Shown here one piece after another: positions 251 through 33,562 of a stretch of DNA of 64,000 nt. Origin of the DNA: Catajapyx aquilonaris (Eukaryota); assembly GCA_000934665.2 (NCBI GenBank), contig JYFJ02001311.1, positions 1 to 64,000 of the forward strand, read 5' to 3'. Every line of letters starts with the position of its first letter. The first letter of the stretch is position 1. A model generated the notes under the pieces. The model was not told where the DNA came from. It made no database searches and worked only from the letters and a program-made list of their open reading frames with translations. The position numbers and the translations under genes were made by a program.

Positions 251-983
251 TCATATAGCTCCTTTGTGATGGACCCAAAGTGTTATGTTGACCAGTCTAT
301 TAGTGAGCACAGGGTCATCGTAGAACAAGTTGGCACAAGTCATGCACCACAAGAGTCCGAAATACCATCCATAGGAGTCGAGATTAGCCATGAATTCTTC
401 TTTGGTCTGGGGTGGATCAACCTGAAGTTTGTGGCATCTCGCAATAAATGTATTCCAGTAAGCATCAAGAATATCCTGAAGATGGTTCTCGCGACAGTCG
501 TCATTAGTACTAGATAAGAAGAACATTGCCAGAGACATGAACGGATGCGTGTAGGCCAGCATTTGCCAGTCAACCAGCTTCATCTGCAAGGTGCCATCTG
601 CAATGGTCCGGAACATGAAGTTGTTGTTCCAAAAGTCAAGTTGGGTTAGCACCACTTGGTGTGGTGAGGATGTTTCCAACTCCTCAAGGCTTGTAACGAA
701 CTGCATTAAGGAGGAGGTTGCATGGGACAGCCTGTCCTTCAGTGCGAGAAGTGCGGGGTATTTGTCGTAGAGAGTCGCAAAACGTTGAAAGCCATCGTAA
801 GCTAAGGAGATGAGGGAGCTGCTCTGGTTACTCAAACTGAAAACGAACGGAAACTCTTCACGAACTGGTCTGGTCAGGGTAGACTGCAAGGCATATGAGG
901 CAGCATGAAGTCTGGCTATGGTTTTGGCAGCCAGAATCGAATGGGGCACATCCAAGCCTTGTTTTATGTCCACATTATCATAC
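251..983 (-). CDS. EcKL gene coding exon 2 (733 nt)
   Basis: Acceptor TTGCAG ends at 984; open frame to TGA at 251-253; contains the catalytic D-x4-N and DWQ motifs. Confidence 0.88.
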
Positions 984-1576
984 CTGCAATATGTCACAGC
1001 TTTTTAAGTCCAGTTGCACCTGATTTCAAACAGATTAAATTGAGATCATATGGCATGTGTAGTATGTACAGTGCATTGCTTGTAATGTAACTGACCATTA
1101 AAGATAATAATGTTAGGCAAAAAAAACCAAAGAAATATTTGTTACCCTTTTGGGCCTAGATCTTCAAGCAGCAGTAGAGATTTTCCTTGCAATTGATTAT
1201 AATCGCCATATATGTATTCGGGCACAGAGTGTCGCAGTTCAGAACTTCCTCTCGACTCTTCAAGCTGAATCATGCGGTGCAGCACCTCACGATATCCACA
1301 TATCTCTGTCACATTCATCTTGTTGTCGATGACAATTCCCTTCACCACTTCAACTGTTGGCAGTAGCTTTGCCACCAGCTGGAGTTTCTCACCATCATTG
1401 CCAACCACAGCTTCCACTTGAACCATGTTGCTGAGCCATCCCTTGCCCTCCTGGTATCCATCCTTCGTAACAATGCTCTTGATGCACAAGTCCTGGCCCC
1501 TTGAAATTTTGAGCACCTGTTGCAACCATTCAGCTGTTATGTCCGTAGCAGAGGCTGGGATACTATGAGCAGCCAT
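251..1576 (-). CDS. Ecdysteroid kinase-like (EcKL / choline-kinase-like CHK domain) phosphotransferase, 2 exons: join(1576..1146, 983..251), 387 aa
   Basis: Two track ORFs join through a phase-2 GT-AG intron at 984-1145 (AAAGG|GTAAC ... TTGCAG|GTAT), giving ...LLLEDLGPKGYDNVD.... Total 1164 nt, ending in TGA at 251-253. Family motifs: ITAEWLQQVL, LVAKL, E..Y (TEICGY), LLLEDL, ARLHAAS, LDFWNNNFMF, KLVDWQ. Confidence 0.88.
1146..1576 (-). CDS. EcKL gene coding exon 1 (431 nt)
   Basis: ATG at 1574-1576 in AAA ATG G context; donor GTAAC at 1145. Confidence 0.85.
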
Positions 1577-1953
1577 TTTAGGTGTCTGACCTACTTGTTA
1601 CTATTACTTGCAGCGTACAGTCGTACACCACCCAGGATATATGGATGTAGGCCACAATCAGCAATGTGTTTGCTTGTTAGTGTAGGATTGATTCCACCAG
1701 GTATGAGGAAATACCCGGACGTTGCATACTCAAGGTCCCACTTTTTTTTTTATCTCAAGGCTTTTGCATGTGTAGAGTCTATCGTGTGGAGTGTATCCAA
1801 TGAGAATGCATATATGTTGTGTTGAGTTTAATAACCTACAGTGATAAATGCCACTTATGTTGCATAATTAGACCTAGTGAACTAACCTTATCTTTCAATC
1901 AATATTATCATGGGGATAGAGTGCCTTCAACTTGACCATGACTTGTGTAATGT

Positions 1954-2806: not shown

Positions 2807-4349
2807 TTAAACCAAGGTCTTGATGACTGGTGAGGACTGCCTCCTTGGCTTTGACGAAGAACCTGGTGGCATCAGCATTGAACTCTGCTGAGACTGCATG
2901 TTGTTAGTGTTGGACAAGCCTTCCACGCTCTTGGCCCCAAACTTCTCCATGGCTCTAGCAACAGCACCTACACATAAGCGATTCCATGGCTGAGCGAAGA
3001 AGGACAAATCCACATGGGCGCTTCCAGAACGTTGCCGTGGACCTGTTGGACTCGGACTTCTCGCTGTTTCTGACGTGTCTTCGCTGCTGCTGTTTCCGGA
3101 TGCTTCTTCTTCTGAAGAAAGAGACTCGGACCGTAAGAACAGCGGAGGAAGATGTTCCTCGTCTTCCCCTTCAGTGGATGGAGTCATTGGCGCTTCATCA
3201 TCAAGCGGTGCGGTCTGGATTGTTATGCACGGAATCAGTATGGTGGTCCCCTCCTCTGAATTGTTGTTCTCAACATCGGAGCCAGATTCGGTCGTTTCCT
3301 GGTTGACATCGCTTTCTTTGTTGTCCTCCTGGACTCGGGCGATAGTTTCTTGCGCTTTGAGTAGCTTTCTGAACGGCGACGGAGAACGTCGTGAATCTCC
3401 AAGAGGTGAGAAGCAATAACTTCTTTCCGGAGCCACAGCCACTGAATGCCGACGAGGATTGGCGTTGTTGGTGTTGGTGTTGGCGATGGAAGTGGTTTCA
3501 CACTGCTTGTTGAAGTTGAGGATGAGTTGTGCCACGCTTGGTTTTGGAGGAGGCGGCGCCTTGTTGTTCTGTGGCAGCTCAGTCGGGACGTGGTCTTCAT
3601 TCTCGTCCGATTCTGATGTGTCCATGGCTTCTACTGGGGGCGCTTCAGCTGCTGGTTTCTCCGGTTGCGGTGCTGGTTCTTCCTTCTTGTCCGAACTGGT
3701 GTCCTGTGACGACGACCCCCGGTTGAGCAGGGTCGGCTCGCTTTGACTCTTGCTCCAGAAGAACGGAAGCTTCCTGAAGTGAAGAGGCGACTTGGGCAGT
3801 CCATCCACCTTCTTGTCTTCTGCCTGCTCGCCCTCTGGCTCCTCCGGGAGAGGCGTGCATCTGGATGGCCCCAACAGAAGACACTCCAGTGAACCCTCTG
3901 GAACCATCGGAGAGGACAAATGGGACAGCCTCCAGCCGCCGTTAATGCTGCTGGCGCCATTTCTGGTGGCAGCCGGTATGGCCTCCTGCGACCTGGACAG
4001 CGACTTGAATGACCAGTACATATCTTCGGCTCCGTGATGGTGACGGTGACTCAGCAGCCTGTCCCTGGACCTGCTCAGGCTCATCTTCAGCTCCCAGAGA
4101 CGCTCCCTGGATTTGGACACGTTCTTCCGCAGCTCAGTTCCGGCCAGCCTCTCGCACAGAACTTCTCTGGACTTGGACAGGTTGGCTCTGAGGCTCATGG
4201 TGCTGTGGTGCAGATGCTTGATGCTCTGTCGACGCAGTGCTGGTGTTGGCTCTCCGGTCGGTGCCGACACCTGTCGAGCCAGAGGAACTGTCTTGGTGCA
4301 ACCAACTATCCATGGATGCTTCAGGCCTTGCTTGGCTGACAGTCGTGCC
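2807..4349 (-). CDS. Paralog A coding exon 6 (end of kinase domain plus ~500-aa low-complexity tail)
   Basis: CTTCACCAG|G GCA CGA CTG (RARLSAKQGLKHPW); long open frame to TAA at 2807-2809. Confidence 0.9.
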
Positions 4350-7300
4350 CTGGTGAAGACATATTTTGTCAATCACAATGCCAAAACATAGCTTGGTTGA
4401 ATGACCAAAAAGCAAAACTCAGGGACACAAACGGTTACAAGGAGTCAGGTTTCACTTTTTCGTTTGACTTTTCGGCTGATTAGGATCACCTGTACAGAAG
4501 GACCAATGACACCGGCTAGAAGGTCTTCCACTATACATTCCTGGTCACATCCGCATGCTACGGTCCAGATTCCCGATTTAAACAGGTAACGGTACAGCCA
4601 CAACATTAATCGGGTGTCCCAGACAACCTGACAGCCCATCAAACATAACAGTTTTCTAGTCTCTAGTTTTACATATACAGCAGTAGGTCACTTATGCAGC
4701 CGTAAAGTATTGCCCCAAACTGCAACGAGTAATTATGTTGAGACCAATGGCAGTAAAAGTTGTCAATTTGCTTTTTAGTGGACCGGAGTGCCCCATGCCT
4801 GTGCAGCTTCTTGTTTCAGTTAAAAGAAAGGAAGCTCCAAGCCCTGTCCTGATCCCAGCGCGATATCAGTCATGTCAAGCCTCTGCCTTTCTCGAGCCGA
4901 CAGAGGCACAATTAGTCAGCTGTCACCTTGGTGAGGTCGCTCACCTGGGCTCTCTGACGATGAGCCGGCGGATGAAATCTCGAGCCTCTTCAGACACGTC
5001 CTCGAACAGCTCCTCTGGGAAGTCTGGCAGCTCTGGGTTCTGACAAATGTTCCAGAAGGTCTCCTGGTCCGTGTCTCCAGCGAAGGGCGAGAATCCGGTC
5101 AGAAGGACGTATGTGACCACACCCACTGACCACATGTCGGCGGCCACCGTGATGGGCTCGAACTGGAGGACCTCCGGAGCTGAAAGGAAATTTTATTTAT
5201 TCATTACACATGTAGAAGAAAATGCACCCAGTGCTTGTTGATTAAGTAACTCAATAAATTTTCAAAATACTGTAATGTTAATTAAATCAATTTTAGTAAA
5301 TAATGCGAGGGAATGAAATATTAAGCAATAAATATAATTAAGCAAATAAAAATTAAGAAAAGAAATTTATCGATTAAAATAAATGAATAACTTGAAATAA
5401 ATTACTGGAAAATAAATATAGCCTATCAATTTAAATCAAATGATTAAAACACAATTAATGAATACCACTTTAAATTACTGCGGATTAAAATTTATGAAAA
5501 CACATATTTTGAAAGAAAAACTGCTGTCAATAATAAAAAAATCTCAGAAATTGCGTGTGCAATATATTTCAAGTGAATTTTATGTTTCGAGATGATTCAG
5601 AGAATAAGGACAAAAAAAATGCATCAAAATGTCTCTTACCGACATAATCAGGTGTGCCCAAAATCTCTCTGACCTCGGCTCCGTCCAGGATGACACGTGA
5701 TATTTCAAAATCGCAGAGTTTGACGTCGCAATTTGGGAATGGTCCCATCATCACCAAATTCTGGGGCTGCAAATTTGGCCTGTGATTAGTCGAGTGACCT
5801 TCTCAATTAAGGATGTTGCCTGTGACGCAAATGCGGACTCTTTTGCGAATTGCAAAAATGACGAAATGGCCATGCTGACCTTGACAGCTTCGGCCTTTTT
5901 TTTTGTATACTGTCGAGTGCCCAAATGTGGGCAACATCGCGGGTCACGGACTCCCAGGTGTGCAAAGATGCCCTTCCCTCAAAACGTGACATTGGCCACT
6001 TGGTTTACAGGATTGGGCCATTACCTGCCCTTTTTAAGCCCGCTTCCGAAGGCGGTTCTTGCATTTTGCACATCCACTACTTAAGGAAGATGCCGCGCAC
6101 ACAAAAAAATTGCATAGCATGAGGAAAAAAGACGCGGTCACCTTGCAAGGTCAGGGTCATGCTCTATCAGGATGTGAGTCAAATCAAGGTCATTTTTTTA
6201 AGAGTCGAAAATGTACCTGCAACGCCCAAGAAATCGTGTGCTGCGCACATCTTAGTGGTGGTCACAATCTTCCCGATTAACTACCTGCTATTTGCAAGCA
6301 GATGAGTATCACCTGACTGAAAATTACAGCCTTGTCACCTCTGGCGACAAGGGGAACCTGCTGTCTGCACCGCCTCATAAAACCGGATTTGAAATTGCGG
6401 ATTTGGTAGTAACTAGTAGGCTAATTTTTCCAGGAAAAATTTCCGCCGATTTTTATAGAGGTGCTAAAATAAATTGCGCTGCGCACCACACCCAGTGGTC
6501 TGATACCAAATTTGGGGCCTACCTTGATGTCCAGATGGGCAATCTTCTTGTCATGAATGTAAGCCAACCCTTCCAGCATCTGCTTCACAAAGTTGACCAC
6601 ATCTCGCTCGAACGGAACCATATCATCATCAATGATGCTCTGCAGATCACCACCACTCGCACTGAAACAACGCCGACATTAATTAATTACATTAATTATT
6701 ATTTGGGAAGTAATTAGGATGACTTACTATTCCATGACCAGAACCACGTCAGTTGGAGTCTCAAACACGTCCTGTAGTTTGACAATCTTTGGGGACGAGG
6801 ACACGAAGGAAAGAAGTGCTGCTTCGTGCAGAAGTTCAGCTGTACAGTCCGAGCCGTACCGAAGTCTGCTTGCAAATTTGGCTGCATACACCTCACCTGT
6901 CTGCCTGTGTCGGACACGCTTCACCGTCGCAAACAGTCCGCTGTACACACACACAAAAAAACGTGTCATCTCCATATCCAGTTTTCCTTGTGTAACTCAA
7001 ACTCGGTTTCCTTTTGTGTAAACGCTAACGAGGCTTTTTATCTACGTCGCGGAAGACAGTGCTCGGTGAGAAATGGACGTCCGGGTGCTGCCCAATGTCA
7101 ACTACTGCCTAAACATTTCCCCCAACTTTATGTGTATTCTATCAGAAAGGCGAGGTCACTCCATGACTAGCTGATACCTCGGAAGTTGGCTGCTAATGAG
7201 GATTTATGAGCGATTTTTAAGAGCAAGCTGACTTAATAGTTGGTCACTAACCTACTGCCCCTGCCATATACATTGTGAGTTGATTTGGAGGCATTTCCCA

Positions 7301-13300: not shown

Positions 13301-14362
13301 CATCTCGAGAGGCATTTGCCCCCTTTTACTGATGGTGCAGTGGGAAACGCTGGCCATTTACTTCTCACGCGTGCAATAAATCTCTTCGGTAATGATGCTG
13401 TAACTCTGTGCTCGGATTCAGGCTATCTGGCGAGAGCATTCCGTCAGCAGAAGCCTCCAGCATTTAACTGTTTAAAAAGTGCACATTCACTAAATTGCAC
13501 AAATTTTAGAAAAATAATTTTTGGCCGAGTGGACTGTTTTATGACAAACTCAAAAACAGATCAGAAAATTGTGTAAAATTTTACCCCATTCTGCAGAAAC
13601 CATTGCACAATTATTAGTAATCACCCTGAATTTAAATAGGCCATTAAATTTATTGCTTTCGTTTAGTATTTAATACAGAGCTCCCCAAGTCCACAGTCTA
13701 TGAATCAAGTCAGCTATTACGAATTGCTTCCTCGAGCAACCAACAAACACGACAAATGGACCAACTGATCTGATTTTTCCGACAGGTTGCTTCTAAATTG
13801 GTTGACATACCAAATAACTTCTCCGCTCCTAATATGTAAACATTGGCCATGCCTCTATTTACCTCCATTTAAAAGACTCCTGGTACTCACGTGACTATTT
13901 GATAGCTGTTAAATAATTATGCAAATTATTATTCGCGCAAATGGTTGTCGTGCTACAAACATTTGAAATATAGAAATTAAGTAATACCGGCAGTGTTTGA
14001 TTACCCTTCGTGACCCAAGATCGTTTTCGACGCCCCATACCCTTGCATAGCGTGATTACACAATACTCGTCAAATCCCACTATTCACCCCTTTTCCCATC
14101 AAACTTTCCCCAAATAAAAACCAGCTTGAACTTACGTTGCGAAAGGTTCCTCCTCCACCTCGTATAGCTTGTCGATGGGCTGCTTCCTAACCATCTTGGC
14201 CACCTTATCCGGCGGCAACGTAACCACACCATTGTTGACATTTGAAAAATCGCATGAGGCTGCATCTTTGGTCCTATCTCTCTTCCGACTCCGACAACCC
14301 TTGGCCTTCCCTTTGCCCTTGCCCCTACTCCTCTGGTTCACCGCTGGCTGCTGGTAGATCAT
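2807..14362 (-). CDS. DRAK/STK17-like Ser/Thr kinase, divergent paralog A (DFE variant): join(14362..14136, 6940..6728, 6661..6523, 5766..5640, 5179..4945, 4349..2807), 827 aa
   Basis: All five introns are GT-AG with consistent phases (2,2,0,1,2), total 2484 nt. Motifs: PFATGLFATV, YAAK, HEAALL, MEYASGG, HLDIKPQN, KLCDFEISR, GTPDYVAPE, DMWSVG, HPW. The ATG has A at -3 and an in-frame TAG 10 codons upstream. Confidence 0.92.
4945..5179 (-). CDS. Paralog A coding exon 5 (235 nt; APE...DMWS...EPR)
   Basis: CCTTTCAG|CT CCG GAG ... GAG CCC AG|GTGAG. Confidence 0.93.
5640..5766 (-). CDS. Paralog A coding exon 4 (127 nt; PQNL...DFE...GTPDYV)
   Basis: TTTGCAG|CCC CAG AAT ... TAT GTC G|GTAAG. Confidence 0.93.
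6135..6192. promoter_or_regulatory. Cluster of nuclear-receptor half-sites plus an AP-1 site in intron 3 of paralog A
   Basis: CGGTCA 6135, CAAGGTCA-GGGTCA 6146-6159, TGAGTCA 6175-6181, TCAAGGTCA 6184-6192. Confidence 0.3.
6523..6661 (-). CDS. Paralog A coding exon 3 (139 nt; to HLDIK)
   Basis: TTTCAG|T GCG AGT GGT GGT ... GAC ATC AAG|GTAGG. Confidence 0.93.
6728..6940 (-). CDS. Paralog A coding exon 2 (213 nt; subdomains I-V)
   Basis: TGTACAG|C GGA CTG TTT ... ATG GAA TA|GTAAGT. Confidence 0.93.
12962..13004. promoter_or_regulatory. Promoter-like motif cluster (ETS, CCAAT, NRF1/ewg-type) inside intron 1 of paralog A
   Basis: CACTTCCG 12971-12978, ATTGG 12979-12983, TGCGCCTGCGCA 12993-13004. 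Confidence 0.35.
14136..14362 (-). CDS. Paralog A coding exon 1 (basic N-terminus, pre-kinase segment, start of G-loop)
   Basis: Ends EEEPFA-AC|GTAAG and is homologous to paralog B exon 1. A likely acceptor (TATTTCCAG at 14539) would put 5' UTR at 14363-14538 in the same exon. Confidence 0.85.
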
Positions 14363-22315: not shown

Positions 22316-23444
22316 TCAAATGACCATCTCAAACTTCTTGATTCTGGCTCTGACACTCTGGCAGTGAACCTCGGCCTGCTTGGTCAGTGACCCCTTCCGA
22401 TGCGTGAACTCTTGGATGACCACCACATCCCCTCCAGCCAGCTTGAAGTTGGAGATGACCCTCGAGCGACCAGTGTAGGCTTTAAGGGTCTCCCGGGCTG
22501 GGCTGCTTCCAGCTGACGAGGCATTCAGTGATAGAGAGTTGAACTTCTCATATGCTCGTGCAAAGGTGCCATCACACTCTTTCTCCCAGCACCTCCCAAC
22601 GCGATCCAGGAAGTCCAAGCTGCCTCGCCGCGCCCAGTGACTGGTCAATAGCGACGATGACGACGACGACGACACGGATGATGCCAGTGAGGTTAGAGAT
22701 TCGTATCGGCGATGCGATGGATTCAAGGCAGCAGAGGCACTCAGGTCGACTGAATCATCGAGTGATATTATGCTGGACCGGTCACTGGAGGAGTCTGCTG
22801 AGGACATCTCACTGACTTCATTGCTAGACTCACTCCCCCTGTCACAGGAATTCTCTCGGTGCGGGATGGAGAGCAGGTTGCGGCCAAGAGCTCTTCTTGC
22901 TCCCCGCGTCCTCCAGTCACGGTTGTGAGGCGTGGATGTTAGTTGCGCAACAATGTAAGCAGCTGGTGATGATGACTGAAGGCTGAAGCGGCGGTTGTCG
23001 AGGCAACTGGCAGTGCTGTGCCGCCTGGCAGGGCTAATGGTACGCTTATCCAGGATTGGGTTGCTGTTCAGGTCGAAGGAGTTGTCCAGCAGTGGAGTCC
23101 CAGGCAGTACTGTGAGCGGTGTGGGAAGTGGTGGAGGTTCCAAAGGCAGTGGTGGTGGCAGGTCTTCTTCGCTGGGCAGGATTGAAATCTCTGCCCTCTT
23201 CTCCTCCTGGGCTAGCATCACTTCAGCATTTCCATTCATGGCATCAGAGTGGACACAGGTGCAATTTGGTTTCAGTTCTTGCTGCTTCTCCTGTGCTGGC
23301 AATACTACTGGCTCAACTGGAACAACTTCTACGGGTGGTACTACTGCTTGTGGCGTTACTGCTTGCGGCGTGAGATGTCTCGAGACCTCTTCCTTCTTGG
23401 CGAGCCATGGATGATTCAAACATTCGAATGCGGTGAGTCTCTCA
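22316..23444 (-). CDS. Drak: Paralog B coding exon 7 (end of kinase domain plus Pro/Ser-rich tail)
   Basis: CACTTCCAG|T GAG AGA CTC (SERLTAFECLNHPW); open to TGA at 22316-22318. Confidence 0.9.
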
Positions 23445-26400
23445 CTGGAAGTGCAAGGGGTGTTATCAGTCGCAATGAACGCATTCACTTGGCTCTGCAC
23501 GAGCACAATAATGAACAAATTACACCTTGTAATTTCGCTTTACAAATTAGATGCTGAACTGGTCTGAATAGGAAATTGTGCGGGTCTCACCTGGATTCTT
23601 TGACCAACAATCTTGAAATGAAGTCTTTGGCTAAGTCTGAGACATCCTCAAAGAGCTCTTGAGGAAAATCCAACTTGCACTGGGTGATGTTGCAGAATGT
23701 CTCCTGCTTGGTGTCTCCTCCAAACGGCGAGTATCCTGTAAGCAGCACATATGCCAGAACTCCCACGGACCTAGTGAGGGAGAGAAAGTCCGACTTTAAT
23801 AACCTTTTTTTTGTAACCCATAAGATTCTCACCTACAACTTTCATCCCCAAGGTTCTTAAGCAACACACACCTTTAGGTAAGTGCATCCTCCCAATCTAT
23901 TATTAACAGCTGTTTGGAGATTCCAGACGTGACCGCAAAAAATGAGATTCTCCAGCAATTACAGGCAAGGGAGGCAGACCAAAACCCGATCATTACAGCA
24001 TGGCGGTGGGTTCTATAAATCACTACCATCGGGATCGACTTCTGGTTAAGGGAGTCGACTTACCCCCTTTTAAAGTCAAACTGGTATGTTAAGGGCAAGC
24101 AAAACTGGCCCCGAATGGGAATTAAGTTTGACACCAGTTTTTTAGTCACACAGCTTCTACGGTGATGAAGCTGATGATAATGTTAACTTACCACATGTCA
24201 GTGGCCAGGCTGATTGGCTCGTAATTCAGGACTTCTGGAGCTGCAAACACAAGCAATGAATCAGTATTCTGTTAATTACATCACCATATATTTGCAAATC
24301 AAGATATTTATTTTAATGTGCAGTGATTCTGTCTCATTTCTTTCACTTAGTAAAATTATTTATTATGTAAGAGAACAACAAGCCCTGACAACTCACCAAC
24401 ATAATCCGGCGTCCCCAGTAATTCTCTCACATCAGTTCCTTTGGCAATGTATCGTGATATTCCAAAATCGCACAGCTTCACTTCGCACTCCGGGTAATCT
24501 CCAGTCAGTACCAAGTTCTGCGGCTGGAAAAGAATAAAAGAAGTGAGTTCAACAGTTCACCAAAAATTGGGGCACAACTTTCAAGCAATTTTGGCCAGGA
24601 ACACACCGCAAAGGGGATGTGGATCACACACTTCACGACCTCTCCTTTTTTTTCTTCTTCTTCCAACATGTTTCTTTTCAACTCCCCTTCTCCCAAAATC
24701 GAGCATTGTCATCCATCTTGGGTATTGACCCTCAGTGTTACATAACGTCACGACACTGCTCCACTTGCACTTGTTTTCCGCCTGACTCGCCTCGGATAAT
24801 CACTTTTAGCACGTCCGTGACTCTCCCAAAAAGTCACACCTTTTTTTTTTGCCATTTTGCCTCACACCCAAAATTCAAATTTTACAGCTTCAGATAACTT
24901 TGATGTTCGATCATAATCAAGGTGGGCCCATCCCAACCGATCATAAAACTGTTCTTTTTTTTATTTATTAACAGACTTGTTCATCCCCTAAGCCGACCCT
25001 GTCACTCGAGCTTTTCGCCCCTGGGCCAAACGTTTCTACTAGGCCACAGACATTACGGTACTTGTCGGGAGGGGCCAGAAGGTGACCCCCTCCAGTAAAG
25101 GGGGGACCAAATGATCAGTTTTTTTTTTTTAATTCCAGTTGGTGAAGTGCACTGTACAAATCGCAAAAATAGATCGCGCCTATGATCAATCAACCTGAGT
25201 CTATAATCAGCAAGATGTTATGATCCGGCCCTAATTATGTTTCAGACCGATAATAACAGTGACTTTGGAGGACATGCCTATTATACCGACTGGGGTGGGG
25301 TTTGCTAAAATTCCAACCTGCATCTTGCCATTCTGAGGAGGAAATGGTCGCGAATATTACAAGGTCAACATTTTAAAAATTTCAAGTGTCTCTTTAAGAT
25401 ATGGCGCCCAGAAGCTCGCCGTATCTGAAGGCACCCTACTTAGGACGGGTTATAAATAATGATTCCACCACGTTTTAAAGCTCGCGGACATCATTTTATT
25501 AAATCCCATCACGAGCCATTTAAAAACAACAAAAAAAATGGTTGGGACTCTGATCAAGTGGCGGCTGACAGCTCGGCGCCTCGAAGTGCCATACTTGTGC
25601 ACCGTTATGCCAATATAAGCCTTACCCCTAGAGAGGTCACGTTTTATTTTAAAACGCTAAAAAATTTATCTAGTAATCGTGCCATATAAATCCATCCACT
25701 CCTTTCTCTATCCACGCCCTCACGTTTCTCGGATTAGTTGTGCTCCCTATGTACAAGGTGTGACAAAATCTGTTTACTGGCTTTTGGTTTACGATCTCCA
25801 AATTGCAAAGGGTCAAGTTTAGCCAACCCCTTTTAAGAGGAAGCCAGGTGGTCGCATCAGGACCGCATTCCAGCGACCAAAAACCGATCTTCTGGTGATG
25901 ACCCAAAGTGTCCCAAGGACCGAAGGAGTGGCAAAACCGGTCCAGAAGAAATTCGAGACGCTCTCTTGCACGCGACCTCGTATAAACCAGTTGAGGTCAA
26001 GCTTTTGCACACCGGGCGACAAGCTTTCCACTTGAATGGTGCTACACAAGACGATGCACTGTGCAGGATTTTTCCCTCCATAAGGCTTATAGTTCAGGGT
26101 CGGCTTTGCGACACTACATAATTCAGGCTAAGGAATCGACCGACAGGAATAAAGTCAAGGACCTCGCGGAGCATTACCAATCGATCATCTTTTACGAAGG
26201 TATAATCCCTGTAATCCGATGTCCCGTTATTCGACAATAATAATAAGGCGCGCGAGGTTCTAGGGTATCCTCCAGTGTTGGTAATCGGTATCTCACCTTG
26301 AGGTCCAGATGAGCGACATTCCTCTGGTGCAGGTACGACAGCCCCCCTAGGATCTGCTGCATGAATTTGACAGCGTAGGACTCCAGCATACCTTCCTCGC

Positions 26401-29400
26401 TGTCGAGGATGGTCTGGAGCTCACCACCTGGAGCGCTGGAAAAAAAATGAGACACACGGTGATCAATCAATTTGAAAGTTGACCATGACCATCTGTATAA
26501 TTCGACCCGTGTTAAAGGTTCCGATTGCATACCAAGCCACGCCTTATGTCCTCTGGGGTATTACATAGCTCTGCTTTCACTGGCACATTCTCATGATTTA
26601 AAAAAAATTGTGCCGCAAGACTCATTGCTCCACACAAATTGCGAAAAAAAATGCTGCTGGAAAAATGACTTACAGTTCCAGGATTAGCACCATCTCTGTC
26701 GGCGTCTCGAAGACTTGTTGCAACCGGACGATATGTGGACATTGCGATGCCAGTTCTAGGACCGCGACTTCGTGCAATATCTCTGTCGTCTGGTCAGCGG
26801 TTCGTCGACGCTTCCGGATGAATTTGGCTGCATATGACTGCCCACTTGCTCGATGTACCACTCGCCGTACAGTAGCGAACTTGCCTCTGAAATAATTAAT
26901 AAATAATTAATAATGCTGGCATATAGAGGGGGCGGTGCATAGCCTACTAATGTCATCGAGGTTGATAATATCTAACAAAAATTATAGGACGCAGTAGCAG
27001 CTAGACCAGCAGCTGCGAAAAAAAAATCAGTTTGCAGAGGTCAAACTTTCGCAGCGGGTCAAGTGCCCCTTTCGAAAAAAAAATGTTGTGGGGAGGTTGT
27101 CTGGAAGGGTTGGGAAGTCGAACAAGAGCCAAAAACTCCGCGGTTATGCGAGACTAAATAACCTACATTGTCCTCGACTCCCCAGTTCATTAAATTCCTT
27201 CTCGAACTGGGTCAAACTGATAAAATTGATACCACTTGCATACTTGACTCGTTGGGGGGAGACGCCTTGGAGTTTTGGGTTTCACCACTCGAAATACCAG
27301 TGAACCCATTTCTTGACCATCGAAACTCTAACTTAAACAAATATGTGGAATGCAAATACACAAAGTTGATGCGGAAGCAAGGTTGCTGGATTGAACAAAC
27401 CCTGTGCTTCTGACGTTTCATTGATAAAAGTGTTGCGCATTTCCGTTCCATTTGATAAGATGAGTAAACGCGTCCCCATTGACAAAAAGTCTGCTGACCA
27501 TGTCTTAAGAACACATGACCAGTACTGTTCGTAACTTATATTTTTATCACCGACTTTCGCACGACTTTTGCCCACAGACAGGACCAGCTCTTACGACATA
27601 TTACCTTGCCCTCTTCACTGGTTCCGCCAGTTTAAAAAAAAATCTCTTACAAACACCTGAAACCCGGGGCGGCAACAAATAACGCCTGACTAACACTCGC
27701 TAACCGCATCATCCGACATCCCCATCTATCTCCCTCATGCTGGAAAAACCATCCGATCCGCAAGATTACAAGCCTCCCTGTAATTGGCCTCCCAATGAAC
27801 TCAACGAGGTGCACACACGCTGTCAGGAAGTTAAAAGTTGACAACCGTTCCGGCAATAACCTGCGACATGTCCGAAAAAAAGTATCCGCTACTTTTCCTC
27901 ATTACCCGCGCTCTTTTCCTGTGAAAAACAAATGAAAAAAAAATTATATATAATTGGATCGTCCAGCATGACCATTCTTACAAAGTATAAACGGAACGTC
28001 CTTGCCCCCTTACAAGCCATTATCAAGAACCCCTCTTTAAAAAAAAAGGCGGTCCCAAAACGTTGAACCCATCTTCTCAATTTTTTTATATACACCTTTA
28101 TACCCATCGGTTGGAAGGTACACGAACGCCTCCAAGGCTTTTGAGGCATCCCGAGGGCCTTGACACGACCTTGGGAAGGACATAGCCCGGATCCAGAGGT
28201 CACGCACAATCTTTTGTTTTTTTGACCAACCCCGTAAGGCACCGTGTGAACAACCCAACGGAAATTAAAAACTTGCTAGGGAAAACAACGAGCTTGGAAT
28301 TTCCAAGATGGCCCCCGGGTTTCGAAGCTGGGAGGTAAACAGAAGGTTCCTCGAACAAAGAGAAAAAAAAAAAGTGTGCAGACACACATCTGCTCTATCC
28401 AGCTGCTCTGTTGGGTCACCCCCTCCTTCAGGGTCGTAGGGACAAAAGGGACACCCCAAAAGAATGGGGACGCGTGCCACACTCCATTTCGAAATCTGGC
28501 GGTCCAATCGCCCAAAAACCAGTAACGGCGGAATTTCAGCGCACAATAGCCAGGAGATAACCAATAACTGTTCTGCTGTCCACAGGTTCGCCGCCTAATA
28601 CCTGGTTCTAAATATACCCCAGATAAGGCGATTACCTCCAGAACTAATCGACTATACCGGTGCAAAATCTGCCGTCATTGACCAAGAATGTCCACATGAC
28701 TCCCAACATATGTGACTCACACCCATATTTGAACAGGTACGTGGTACGTGCCGCAACGGACAATTCCGGAACCCAAGAAGGACTCCTTCCGGTCGTTTCA
28801 CCTCACTGACTAAATTTCCATGACATGGGAACATGGGAACGAAGCCCCCAACGGAACACCCGAAAAAAAAAAAAATCGGAAGGGAAGCGTATCCTAACAA
28901 AAGCATGGTTCTCACAATTAAAAGGAAGTTTCCGGTATTCATCTTCGGTTCTGCTGTATAAGGTAGGTGGTCTCAGAATAAAACCCGGGCCCAACGTCCT
29001 TGTCAGGGTCGACAGATGAAAAGGAATGTCCAGCCCCTCCCCTTTTATGCCTTTACCTTCCCCGCATTCCTCGAGTCTACCTTTTTCAAAAAAAACTTTC
29101 TTCAGGGGCGGGTTAACCACATTTGACAGACTCATACTGGCCCATCACAATATTTGGTTCGTTGCCTCGGACACATGTGAAGCAAGGGTGTGAACTCTGA
29201 AAAATTCAGTTGCTAATAGCTAGTGGCGGTGAAAGTGTGAATTCTCACCCCCCCTAACGACAAAAAAATATGCTCTTGAATATGGCAACCACCGCATACC
29301 ACAACAAGTGCACTTGAAGGCGCGAAAAGAAACGGATGTGGACATAAAAAGGTGGTGACCTTCGATGGCTGAGACCAGAATCTTTTGGCCAAGAAAGGAA

Positions 29401-32400: not shown

Positions 32401-33562
32401 CAAATATTCTTCAGGGTCTGGGCCACATCCCCAGAATGTTTCACTTGGCGCCGCCGTCCGTATGCAAAAAAGAAACGAAAAGGGGCCTATATCGGCTTCG
32501 AAACAGGTTGGGTAAGATGTCCGGGGCTTTCACTGTGACCTGCCCCATGCACTTTGTCCTCTAAACACTCAGAAAGTGAGTGACAAAATTTGTGTACAAG
32601 GCTTCCTTAGAGACGGTGCAATTTGTATGTACCGCCTCATACACAGCCTGGAGTCAATGTTCCCACCATAAGCACATTAGGCCAGCAATTGTTACGCCAG
32701 CATAATCGGCCTTGATGGGGTGCCCTACCTGCGCTCCCGAAAGCACCATACTGTACACCCTGTACCGGAGTCAAAAAATCGCCAATTTTGCACACCGACC
32801 GCTCTTTAAATTTAATGCTTCTTTATGCAATAGGCACAACCGTATGTCCTTAACCCGGTTTAAAACATGCATATTACCAACATTCGCAAAACGGTACTTT
32901 CCGTCTATTAATAATTATACCCCCGTGCTTCCAATTTTTTATGGATCCAACCTTCACCCTTGAAAGAATGGCCGTGGCCGGAGGCTGCTCGAAGCCGTGA
33001 AGAAGGCTCAGGTCACAAGGTGGACCTCATTCTTTTGTCTAAACCCGTCCGACCGTCCACCATGCGTGTCTGGACTTGCCACATCTGGCCCGCACCACAA
33101 TTTTTTATTTTTAAAAAAATTATGAATTAAAAAGTGCGTGGGGTCCACATTCGGATGACCTCCGACCTCATGCTCCCGGACTTGAAGGCCGATCAAAGGC
33201 GTGGTTCGCACATGAAGGCCGTTCGATCCCGGATTTTTACCCTTTCTCTTAGTCCGCGGCCATATGTCCGCACAGGTGTTACACAGCTACCGTTGGATGG
33301 ACCGAGTCAAAATGGGGTTATATCAGGAGCAAAAGTCCGTTGCAAACGTGCATGACCGCTGGCCTACTTCCATTGTCCGGACTTACCGAGCAAACGGCTG
33401 GTCCTCCACTTCGAAGTGTTTGGTCAGTGGTTCCTGCACCACCAGTCGGTCCATCTGCTCCGGGGTCAAGCAGAAGAAGCCCGGATGTGTGGTACTCAGG
33501 TTGCAAGATATCCTGGGGTCACCTTTTCCCATGGTGCCATCCACCGACAACAGTTCCCGCAT
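22316..33562 (-). CDS. Drak: Death-associated protein kinase related (DRAK / STK17A-B type) Ser/Thr kinase, canonical paralog B: join(33562..33387, 26886..26674, 26435..26297, 24523..24397, 24240..24192, 23770..23591, 23444..22316), 670 aa
   Basis: Six GT-AG introns with consistent phases (2,2,0,1,2,2), total 2013 nt. Motifs: PFARGKFATV, YAAKFIRKRRR (DAPK-family basic loop), EILHEVAVL, HLDLKPQN, KLCDFGISR, GTPDYVAPE, YEPISLATDMWSVG, GDTKQETFCNI, HPW. The start codon is the least certain part. Confidence 0.93.
23591..23770 (-). CDS. Drak: Paralog B coding exon 6 (180 nt)
   Basis: CCCTCACTAG|G TCC GTG GGA ... GAA TCC AG|GTGAG. Confidence 0.93.
24192..24240 (-). CDS. Drak: Paralog B coding exon 5 (49 nt; not in the ORF track): APEVLNYEPISLATDMW
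   Basis: Hand-translated; TTTGCAG|CT CCA GAA ... GAC ATG TG|GTAAGT. Confidence 0.93.
24397..24523 (-). CDS. Drak: Paralog B coding exon 4 (127 nt; not in the ORF track): PQNLVLTGDYPECEVKLCDFGISRYIAKGTDVRELLGTPDYV
   Basis: Hand-translated; TTTTCCAG|CCG CAG AAC ... TAT GTT G|GTGAGT. Confidence 0.94.
26297..26435 (-). CDS. Drak: Paralog B coding exon 3 (139 nt)
   Basis: TTTTCCAG|C GCT CCA GGT GGT ... GAC CTC AAG|GTGAG. Confidence 0.94.
26674..26886 (-). CDS. Drak: Paralog B coding exon 2 (213 nt)
   Basis: ATTTCAG|A GGC AAG TTC ... CTG GAA CT|GTAAGT. Confidence 0.94.
33387..33562 (-). CDS. Drak: Paralog B coding exon 1
   Basis: ACA ATG CGG (MRELL...) to EDQPFA-CG|GTAAGT; candidate upstream acceptor TTTGCATGTAG at 33800. 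Confidence 0.82.

Follow-up and report, generated by a model that had tools for sequence, protein, structure and literature searches.

Two neighboring protein kinase genes of Catajapyx aquilonaris, both of the DRAK type, carry near the ends of their tails two copies of a 16-residue motif running from Trp to Phe. Conservation in both kinase lineages, in insects as well as crustaceans, shows that the tail of pancrustacean DRAKs has long carried this short linear motif, which predates the tandem duplication and has been kept in disordered, fast-changing sequence. The motif is apparently undescribed. Judging from its sequence, its mode of action most likely resembles that of the short F-actin-binding motif (SFM), although it is not classed as one. 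Both copies lie in the window, i.e., the 64,000 nucleotides of contig JYFJ02001311.1 analyzed here, and all coordinates are collected in Table 1.

Host Kinase Genes

The two genes are arranged head-to-tail and the motif copies are contained within their long last exons. Exon sizes of 213, 139 and 127 nt are common to both, and an alignment of their kinase domains shows the same residue at 149 of 256 positions. In homolog searches these domains group with proteins named STK17A/B or DAPK-related, which identifies the hosts as DRAK/STK17-type kinases; A is the DFE paralog and B the DFG paralog. All five introns of gene A were seen as CT..AC joints, at the modeled positions, in a 2609-nt contig of run X1, which places the motif of paralog A and the kinase in one reading frame of a spliced molecule. 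The kind of run is not on record for X1, and we took from it the spliced joints only. Gene B introns rest on splice signals and homology, with the start codon placed by likeness to homolog N-termini; its motif region is covered by a contig of X1. Next to gene A, on its downstream side, lie two open frames that match ecdysteroid kinase-like proteins (EcKL, PF02958; window 251-1597, minus strand) and are probably one two-exon gene.

Table 1. Coordinates of the kinase genes, the shared motif and other tail elements in the window.
Feature	Coordinates	Strand	Basis or remarks
Gene A, DRAK-like kinase with DFE in place of DFG, ~827 aa	2807..14362	-	Splice model and spliced contig; DFE clade in tree
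Gene A, six coding exons	14136-14362, 6728-6940, 6523-6661, 5640-5766, 4945-5179, 2807-4349	-	Five joints confirmed by contig
Gene B, DRAK-like kinase with DFG, ~670 aa	22316..33562	-	Splice signals and homology; DFG clade in tree
Gene B, seven coding exons	33387-33562, 26674-26886, 26297-26435, 24397-24523, 24192-24240, 23591-23770, 22316-23444	-	
Shared motif, copy of paralog A (DFE kinase), 16 aa, W...F	2939..2986	-	Translation, homologs, spliced contig
Shared motif, copy of paralog B (DFG kinase)	22541..22588	-	Translation, homologs; helix 291-305 in tail model
SFM-like core P1-P9 of A copy (P1 V, P4 A, P8 F, P9 G)	2936..2962	-	Compared by eye with PMC13364712 Supplementary Table 3
SFM-like core P1-P9 of B copy (P1 F, P4 A, P8 F, P9 N)	22538-22564	-	Sequence pattern
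Canonical SFM-shaped site in tail A, V-x2-L-x3-F-N	3509..3535	-	In 89/92 long DFE-type homologs
Canonical SFM-shaped site at tail B C-terminus, V-x2-R-x3-F-E	22328..22354	-	In 81/82 long DFG-type homologs; helix 364-372 in model
Two-strand conserved segment just before B terminal site	22358..22426 (approximate)	-	Strands 340-349 and 352-362, low confidence; no fold match
Basophilic RxRxxS-type site, 11 codons upstream of A motif	3020..3037	-	Sequence pattern
Basophilic RRxS site upstream of B motif	22610..22630	-	Sequence pattern
Ser/Asp-rich conserved block of B tails, DSSSDRSS core	22751..22804	-	Invariant columns in two alignments
Repeated S-[KR]-S-R-[ED]-x-L units (three to four) after A kinase	4052..4192	-	Matching pattern in 92/92 long DFE-type homologs

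The Shared Motif

The initial annotation, made from the sequence, had paired two ungapped peptides with nine identities in 16 positions, close to the ends of tails of about 500 and 360 aa that could not otherwise be aligned by eye. Both peptides are present on the minus strand, the plus strand encoding unrelated peptides at the same coordinates. The tails measure ~499 aa (A) and ~361 aa (B) after the HPW that ends the kinase, with 59 and 90 aa, respectively, from motif start to C-terminus, in agreement with the description given. The view that the tails defy alignment needs correction: their final ~230 aa can be weakly aligned, mostly through Ser/Pro-rich sequence, with a BLAST E of 7e-7 when composition is left uncorrected and a Smith–Waterman score of 94 that 1, 12 and 6 of 2000 shuffles equalled. 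Among all ungapped 16-mer pairings of the two tails, the flagged pair scores best, and its BLOSUM62 score of 49 was matched by 1/1000 full shuffles and 1/1000 local shuffles. The identity count by itself is weak: since the tails are low in complexity, at least 9/16 identities arise in 53/1000 and 74/1000 shuffles.

The pattern proposed at the outset, W-x3-C-x-G-x2-A-R-A-x-E-K-F, captures the overall layout but is over-specified, as two of its positions differ among 65 distinct versions of the motif: the Ala that precedes R-A and the Glu that precedes K-F. These versions give the revised consensus W-x-[RK]-[EVI]-C-x-G-[SVAT]-[YVF]-x-[RK]-A-[MLF]-[ES]-[RK]-F. The pattern used to collect them fixed the Cys, restricted several other positions and admitted only F or L at the last position by design; within this set, W is first in 54/65 versions and F last in 63/65. 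Net charge lies between +1 and +3 in 64 of the 65 versions and is at least +2 in 50, the window B copy having a charge of -1. In a low-confidence AlphaFold model of tail B, a helix is predicted over the motif with pLDDT 50-59 while the flanking segments stay below 50, and the model of a honey-bee B-type protein has a helix (544-553) over the motif at similarly low confidence. In both models the predicted helix covers the second half of the motif only. The hydrophobic moment was calculated at 0.54-0.58.

As the initial annotation had supposed, the motif is not a recognized domain: no Pfam family scored above cut-off and no meaningful match was obtained among PDB sequences. With the last exons as queries, Pfam returned SPATA3 below cut-off for A and no family for B, without any match at gathering score (Xin, Caldesmon and WH2 included); with 19 motif rows, it returned two unrelated single weak matches only. 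A profile of the motif found no actin-binding peptide in the PDB and neither Xin nor caldesmon families in Pfam at E up to 10, and a Foldseek search with the low-confidence tail model gave no match at E up to 0.001. In the literature searched, subscription papers aside, no description of the motif was found.

Conservation and Origin

Homologs were collected using one kinase exon from each gene as the query, a choice unbiased as to the tail, with the best 120 of 383 and the best 120 of 329 matches used and proteins of at least 400 aa kept. In this set, which is heavily hymenopteran and contains near-duplicates, the motif pattern is found in 72/92 long A-type (DFE) and 80/82 long B-type (DFG) homologs. 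The sampling is biased to Hymenoptera and Hemiptera, with Diptera, Lepidoptera, Coleoptera, chelicerates and myriapods outside the sample. Best-window scans free of any pattern were also run, and the final Phe (P8 in the numbering used below) emerges in these as well. The 20 long A-type proteins without the pattern include 14 of aphid, adelgid, whitefly or psyllid type, whose tails end early and two of which are truncated forms. The remainder comprise one thrips protein in which the tail end is complete and the motif absent, four truncated-looking or differently ending proteins, and one decayed copy. Of the two B-type misses, one is a damselfly protein in which the motif is kept starting at the Cys, and the other is a thrips model whose end is aberrant. 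The loss in the DFE kinases of aphids, whitefly, psyllid and one thrips shows that the motif is not essential to the DFE paralog everywhere, which limits any claim that the paralogs need it in order to interact.

A 30-column profile of the motif was compared with 1.84 billion representatives, giving 266 matches at E up to 0.001, of which the best 150 were examined. All 43 single-stretch matches among these best 150 of 266 are A- or B-type DRAK tails, as judged from other conserved blocks or overall likeness; those with names include proteins of the isopod Armadillidium, the shrimp Halocaridina, a cockroach and a psyllid. Twenty representative matches were looked up, four of them clusters with a species name, and no vertebrate name occurs among them. 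The 107 multi-stretch matches were dropped as artefacts, 104 being repeated-unit database entries and three other proteins, two of these seen to be repetitive. The 104 repeated-unit "proteins" look to us like translated CRISPR arrays, and such entries crowd profile searches with short motifs.

Conservation in orthologs, on which the initial annotation had made its proposal depend, was thus found in both lineages, in insects, an isopod and a shrimp, and the pattern and profile searches that it had suggested recovered the motif in DRAK tails of both types among homologs and representatives alike. Certain B-type tails among the profile matches carry the motif in A-like wording, and the aphid B copies have seven consecutive residues in common with the window A motif; together, these observations indicate one ancestral motif. 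In an unrooted tree of 26 kinase domains, built without an outgroup, 13 DFE rows and 13 DFG rows split at 100/100, and in each half the window gene sits on a long branch apart from the rows of insects. The two motif copies of the window are identical at 27/48 bases and encode five of their nine shared residues by different codons, so they do not stem from a recent gene conversion. The initial proposal of a short helical module kept since the duplication is supported by the presence of the motif on both sides of the 100/100 split, by the lack of recent conversion, by the AlphaFold helix, and by its absence from Pfam and PDB sequences.

The other way to account for the resemblance is chance likeness in low-complexity tails, or recent gene conversion between neighbors. 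The 5-7% of shuffles that reach at least 9/16 identities would speak for chance; the BLOSUM62 score, equalled in 1/1000 shuffles, the separate conservation in both lineages across insects and crustaceans and, for conversion, the synonymous divergence between the copies speak against it. We leave this reading next to no probability, as the ortholog data rule it out. In the ants Cataglyphis (006037/006038) and Pogonomyrmex (006874/006875), the locus tags of the DFE and DFG genes follow directly on one another, and in two further hymenopterans they nearly do; such adjacency indicates that the tandem pair of the window is ancient and persistent.

Comparison with the Short F-Actin-Binding Motif

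The SFM, V(P1)xxL(P4)xxxF(P8)E(P9), is a nine-residue helix that binds the SD1/SD3 cleft of actin with an affinity of 2-12 micromolar (PMC13364712, 2026). According to the sections of that study consulted here, P1 and/or P8 are essential whereas P4 and P9 tune affinity, Ser/Thr are enriched at P-2 to P0, and changes outside the core left affinity unaltered in two peptides tested. The screen covered the human proteome and described SFMs as arising de novo; human STK17A/B are not among its 124 listed human SFMs, and a term search of its main text returned no mention of Drak, STK17, Drosophila or insects. The likeness of our motif to the SFM was checked against this study, and all counts of SFM rows given below were made by eye.

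The second half of the motif has the P1...P8 spacing of the SFM and, in the low-confidence models, forms a single short helix within disordered sequence, as SFMs do. P1, an aliphatic anchor with Val as the SFM consensus, is Val in window A and Phe in window B; over the 65 versions it is Y25 V23 F12 L3 R2, hence hydrophobic in 63 and aromatic in 37, whereas aromatic P1 occurs in 3/124 listed SFMs. P8 is Phe in 63/65 versions (the collecting pattern admitted F or L alone) and P0 is Ser or Thr in 46/65. The likeness extends to a short amphipathic helix in disordered sequence with hydrophobic P1, Phe at P8 and Ser/Thr at P0, and to the hosts, which are actomyosin regulators with tandem copies in one protein. 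The differences lie at P4, which is Ala in 61/65 and Val in 4/65 versions in place of Leu, and at P9, where N17 S16 T15 G6 A5 stand in place of Glu (Asp/Gln), with Glu in 1/65; to these are added the often aromatic P1 and the conserved W-x3-C-x-G extension. Among the 124 listed human SFMs, Ala at P4 occurs in five (SSH2, RAMAC and three Xin repeats) and Asn, Ser, Gly or Ala at P9 in nine; all five with Ala at P4 have Glu at P9, and none pairs Ala at P4 with a non-acidic P9 as our motif does (PMC13364712). The motif was moreover inherited through gene duplication, in contrast with the de novo origin described for SFMs in the consulted parts of the same study.

A pattern loose enough to admit the motif is found in 2906/5000 and 2971/5000 shuffled tails (~58%), so SFM-type spacing alone is weak. 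The W, C and G outside the SFM core, together with conservation at nearly every position, suggest a larger and more specific interface. With Ala at P4, no acid at P9 and the W-x3-C-x-G extension, we do not file the motif as an SFM. Out of the three functions raised by the initial annotation, namely docking, dimerization and actomyosin targeting, the last has a concrete lead in this likeness.

Each tail also has a separate SFM-shaped site (Table 1), a context that favors the actin lead. The two fit V-x2-[L/R]-x3-F-[E/N/Q] with conserved anchors, and this canonical pattern is found in just 272/5000 and 249/5000 shuffles of the window tails (~5%). Their residues at P4 (Leu, Arg) and at P9 (Asn, Glu) all have precedents among the SFMs of Supplementary Table 3 of PMC13364712. 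Crustacean-type tails keep the anchors of the tail A site with the inner residues changed. As candidates for binding F-actin, these canonical sites outrank the flagged motif; they seem unreported.

Drosophila Drak and Vertebrate DRAKs

In the consulted portions of the two studies of the fly kinase (PMC4825652, PMC13225219), Drosophila Drak is the single fly DAPK-family kinase, with a long (380 aa) disordered tail that the latter study calls intrinsically unfolded. It phosphorylates the myosin regulatory light chain, organizes actomyosin and marks cortex and furrows (PMC4825652, PMC13225219), and it is needed for myosin II organization in cellularization rings (PMC4825652). Drak-GFP remains cortical as myosin moves basally, and filamin, the one mapped partner of Drak, binds residues 435-476 and could not be tied to Drak function in vivo (PMC13225219). 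Fly Drak resembles the window kinases in its DRAK-type kinase domain, its long disordered tail and an SFM-shaped tail site. It differs in that the tail pieces seen between ~274 and 530 do not resemble tail A or B, and the filamin site is unlike the flagged motif in sequence. The SFM-shaped site lies at about residues 500-508 and reads V-x2-L-x3-F-Q with a Ser before it, according to a by-eye translation of the clone reads in Table S1 of PMC13225219. It has no mention in the sections of that study covered here, and it falls inside the GST-Drak 435-532 fragment of the filamin pull-downs. A third homolog search, with exon 3 of gene B as query and aimed at fly-type Drak, gave 7 candidates, none significant, and the fly-type tail pattern is absent from all 392 proteins collected. 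Vertebrate DRAK1/DRAK2 (STK17A/B) belong to the same kinase family by homolog names but differ in having tails of only 80-90 aa without known motifs, as stated for mammals in the consulted part of PMC13225219, citing Temmerman 2013.

Possible Functions of the Motif

We hypothesize, with a confidence a little short of even, that the motif is a weak, extended actin-filament anchor which, with a second site, would tether each kinase near the myosin regulatory light chain. On binding, it would fold into an amphipathic helix with G-[SVAT] as N-cap, hydrophobic P1, Ala at P4, hydrophobic P5 and Phe at P8, and with Arg or Lys at P3 and P7. This helix would dock, SFM-like, into the subdomain 1/3 cleft of filamentous actin, and the W-x3-C extension could add a second contact or a regulatory handle. 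Motif and canonical site would then be two weak filament anchors per kinase, on a long leash, holding it near the myosin II regulatory light chain, the substrate of fly Drak. DFE kinases that lack the motif retain the canonical site wherever the tail extends that far, which fits redundancy but does not separate the competing readings. A weaker part of the proposal is that the DFE paralog may use the same site, in which case both kinases would share or compete for filament positions; that it competes with or partners the DFG kinase, as the initial annotation had imagined, is pure conjecture.

The main rival supposes a new type of docking motif, specific to a single folded partner that is not actin. 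This partner could be an actomyosin part (myosin II, light chains, phosphatase or scaffold), or else the motif could bind the kinase domain of DRAK, in cis for autoinhibition or in trans for DFE–DFG pairing. We regard this rival as possible but rather unlikely. The conserved W, C, G, A and F go beyond what an SFM needs, the departures at P4 and P9 point the same way, and a private interface would predict just what was seen in the profile search, where 43/43 single-stretch matches among the best 150 of 266 were DRAK tails; DFE and DFG genes are also still neighbors in Cataglyphis and Pogonomyrmex. No candidate partner emerged, however, and the one partner site mapped in the fly, that of filamin, is unlike the motif in the sections of PMC13225219 consulted. 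As to docking on the kinase, in a full-length model of the honey-bee B protein the motif has pLDDT ~50, no rise over the tail alone, which is a weak objection given the poorly modeled kinase C-lobe. Pairing of two motif copies, possibly through their cysteines (disulfide or metal), could yield homo- or heterodimers of the paralogs, and its occurrence in both of them, with a conserved Cys and a hydrophobic helix face, would suit such self-association. Three helical turns without heptad extension are nonetheless short for a stable dimer, the Cys is single and the protein cytosolic, and the consulted literature attributes DAPK-family dimerization to the kinase domain, so that we consider this very improbable.

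Lipid rather than protein may be the target. A Cys next to a Trp, followed by a basic amphipathic helix, is a layout linked to acylation, and the mostly basic helix (+1 to +3 in 64/65 versions) with its Cys near Trp would allow S-acylation and attachment to the plasma membrane from its inner side, which would recruit the kinases to the cortex. The cortical Drak-GFP of the fly is in line with this (PMC13225219, consulted sections), yet the fixed Gly, Ala, Phe and spacing exceed the needs of lipid contact and the window B copy is acidic overall, with a net charge of -1; a membrane anchor thus seems improbable to us. Given the DAPK/MLCK background of the family, the motif might alternatively be a calmodulin-binding helix, a relic of or substitute for the calmodulin control of those kinases. 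The 1-16 class, known from CaM-kinase kinase, has two bulky anchors 15 residues apart, and the W...F spacing is fixed in most versions of our motif, with a charge of at least +2 in 50/65. Nevertheless, the B copy of the window is negatively charged, a Gly stands in mid-motif and a Pro follows W in many B copies, the predicted helix is confined to the second half, and the motif lies 300-900 aa from the kinase, as opposed to directly behind it. A suspected likeness to the MLCK calmodulin site was dropped after the PDB search: no calmodulin-bound peptide matched among chains of at least 20 residues at E up to 10. The mammalian DRAK tails, too, are without known motifs in the part of PMC13225219 consulted. 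We give calmodulin binding only a slight chance.

For the question of how Drak reaches actomyosin, the locus offers three short elements to consider: the two canonical SFM-shaped sites and the shared extended motif. On like grounds, residues ~500-508 of fly Drak come into view, in an animal that lends itself to genetics. Should the motif bind F-actin, the SFM consensus would widen to include Ala at P4, neutral P9 and a W/C extension, and arthropod kinases would join a class defined on human proteins; should it bind something else, it would be a new docking motif. The scope is modest, i.e., one kinase family in insects and crustaceans. A bolder reading, which we put forward as doubtful, is that W-x3-C-x-G-x4-A-x3-F represents a new motif class with its own receptor, or a new two-part mode of binding actin filaments, private to pancrustacean DRAKs. 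It would place an ancient atypical DFE kinase and its DFG sister at the same contractile site, one tuning the myosin activation of the other, the two having been in tandem since before the insect/crustacean split and overlooked because the tail of the fly kinase has been rewritten.

Other Elements of the Tails

The two-strand segment and the terminal helix of tail B may, in the low-confidence model, form a small folded unit; the terminal 44 aa of B gave only unrelated weak matches against PDB sequences. Basophilic sites stand upstream of the motif in both window copies, though such a site lies within 30 aa of the motif in only 13/65 versions. We take the RxRxxS-type site of tail A to be a possible phospho/14-3-3 switch. 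The Ser/Asp-rich block of B tails was considered as a filamin-binding strand and rejected, as the mapped filamin region of the fly is a different sequence. The repeated units that follow kinase A are possibly a multi-site phosphorylation or docking array. Finally, a basic C-terminal RR-x-S-x-P element of A (2828-2845, minus strand) is nearly invariant in the A-type alignment and is retained even in the thrips protein that lost the flagged motif.
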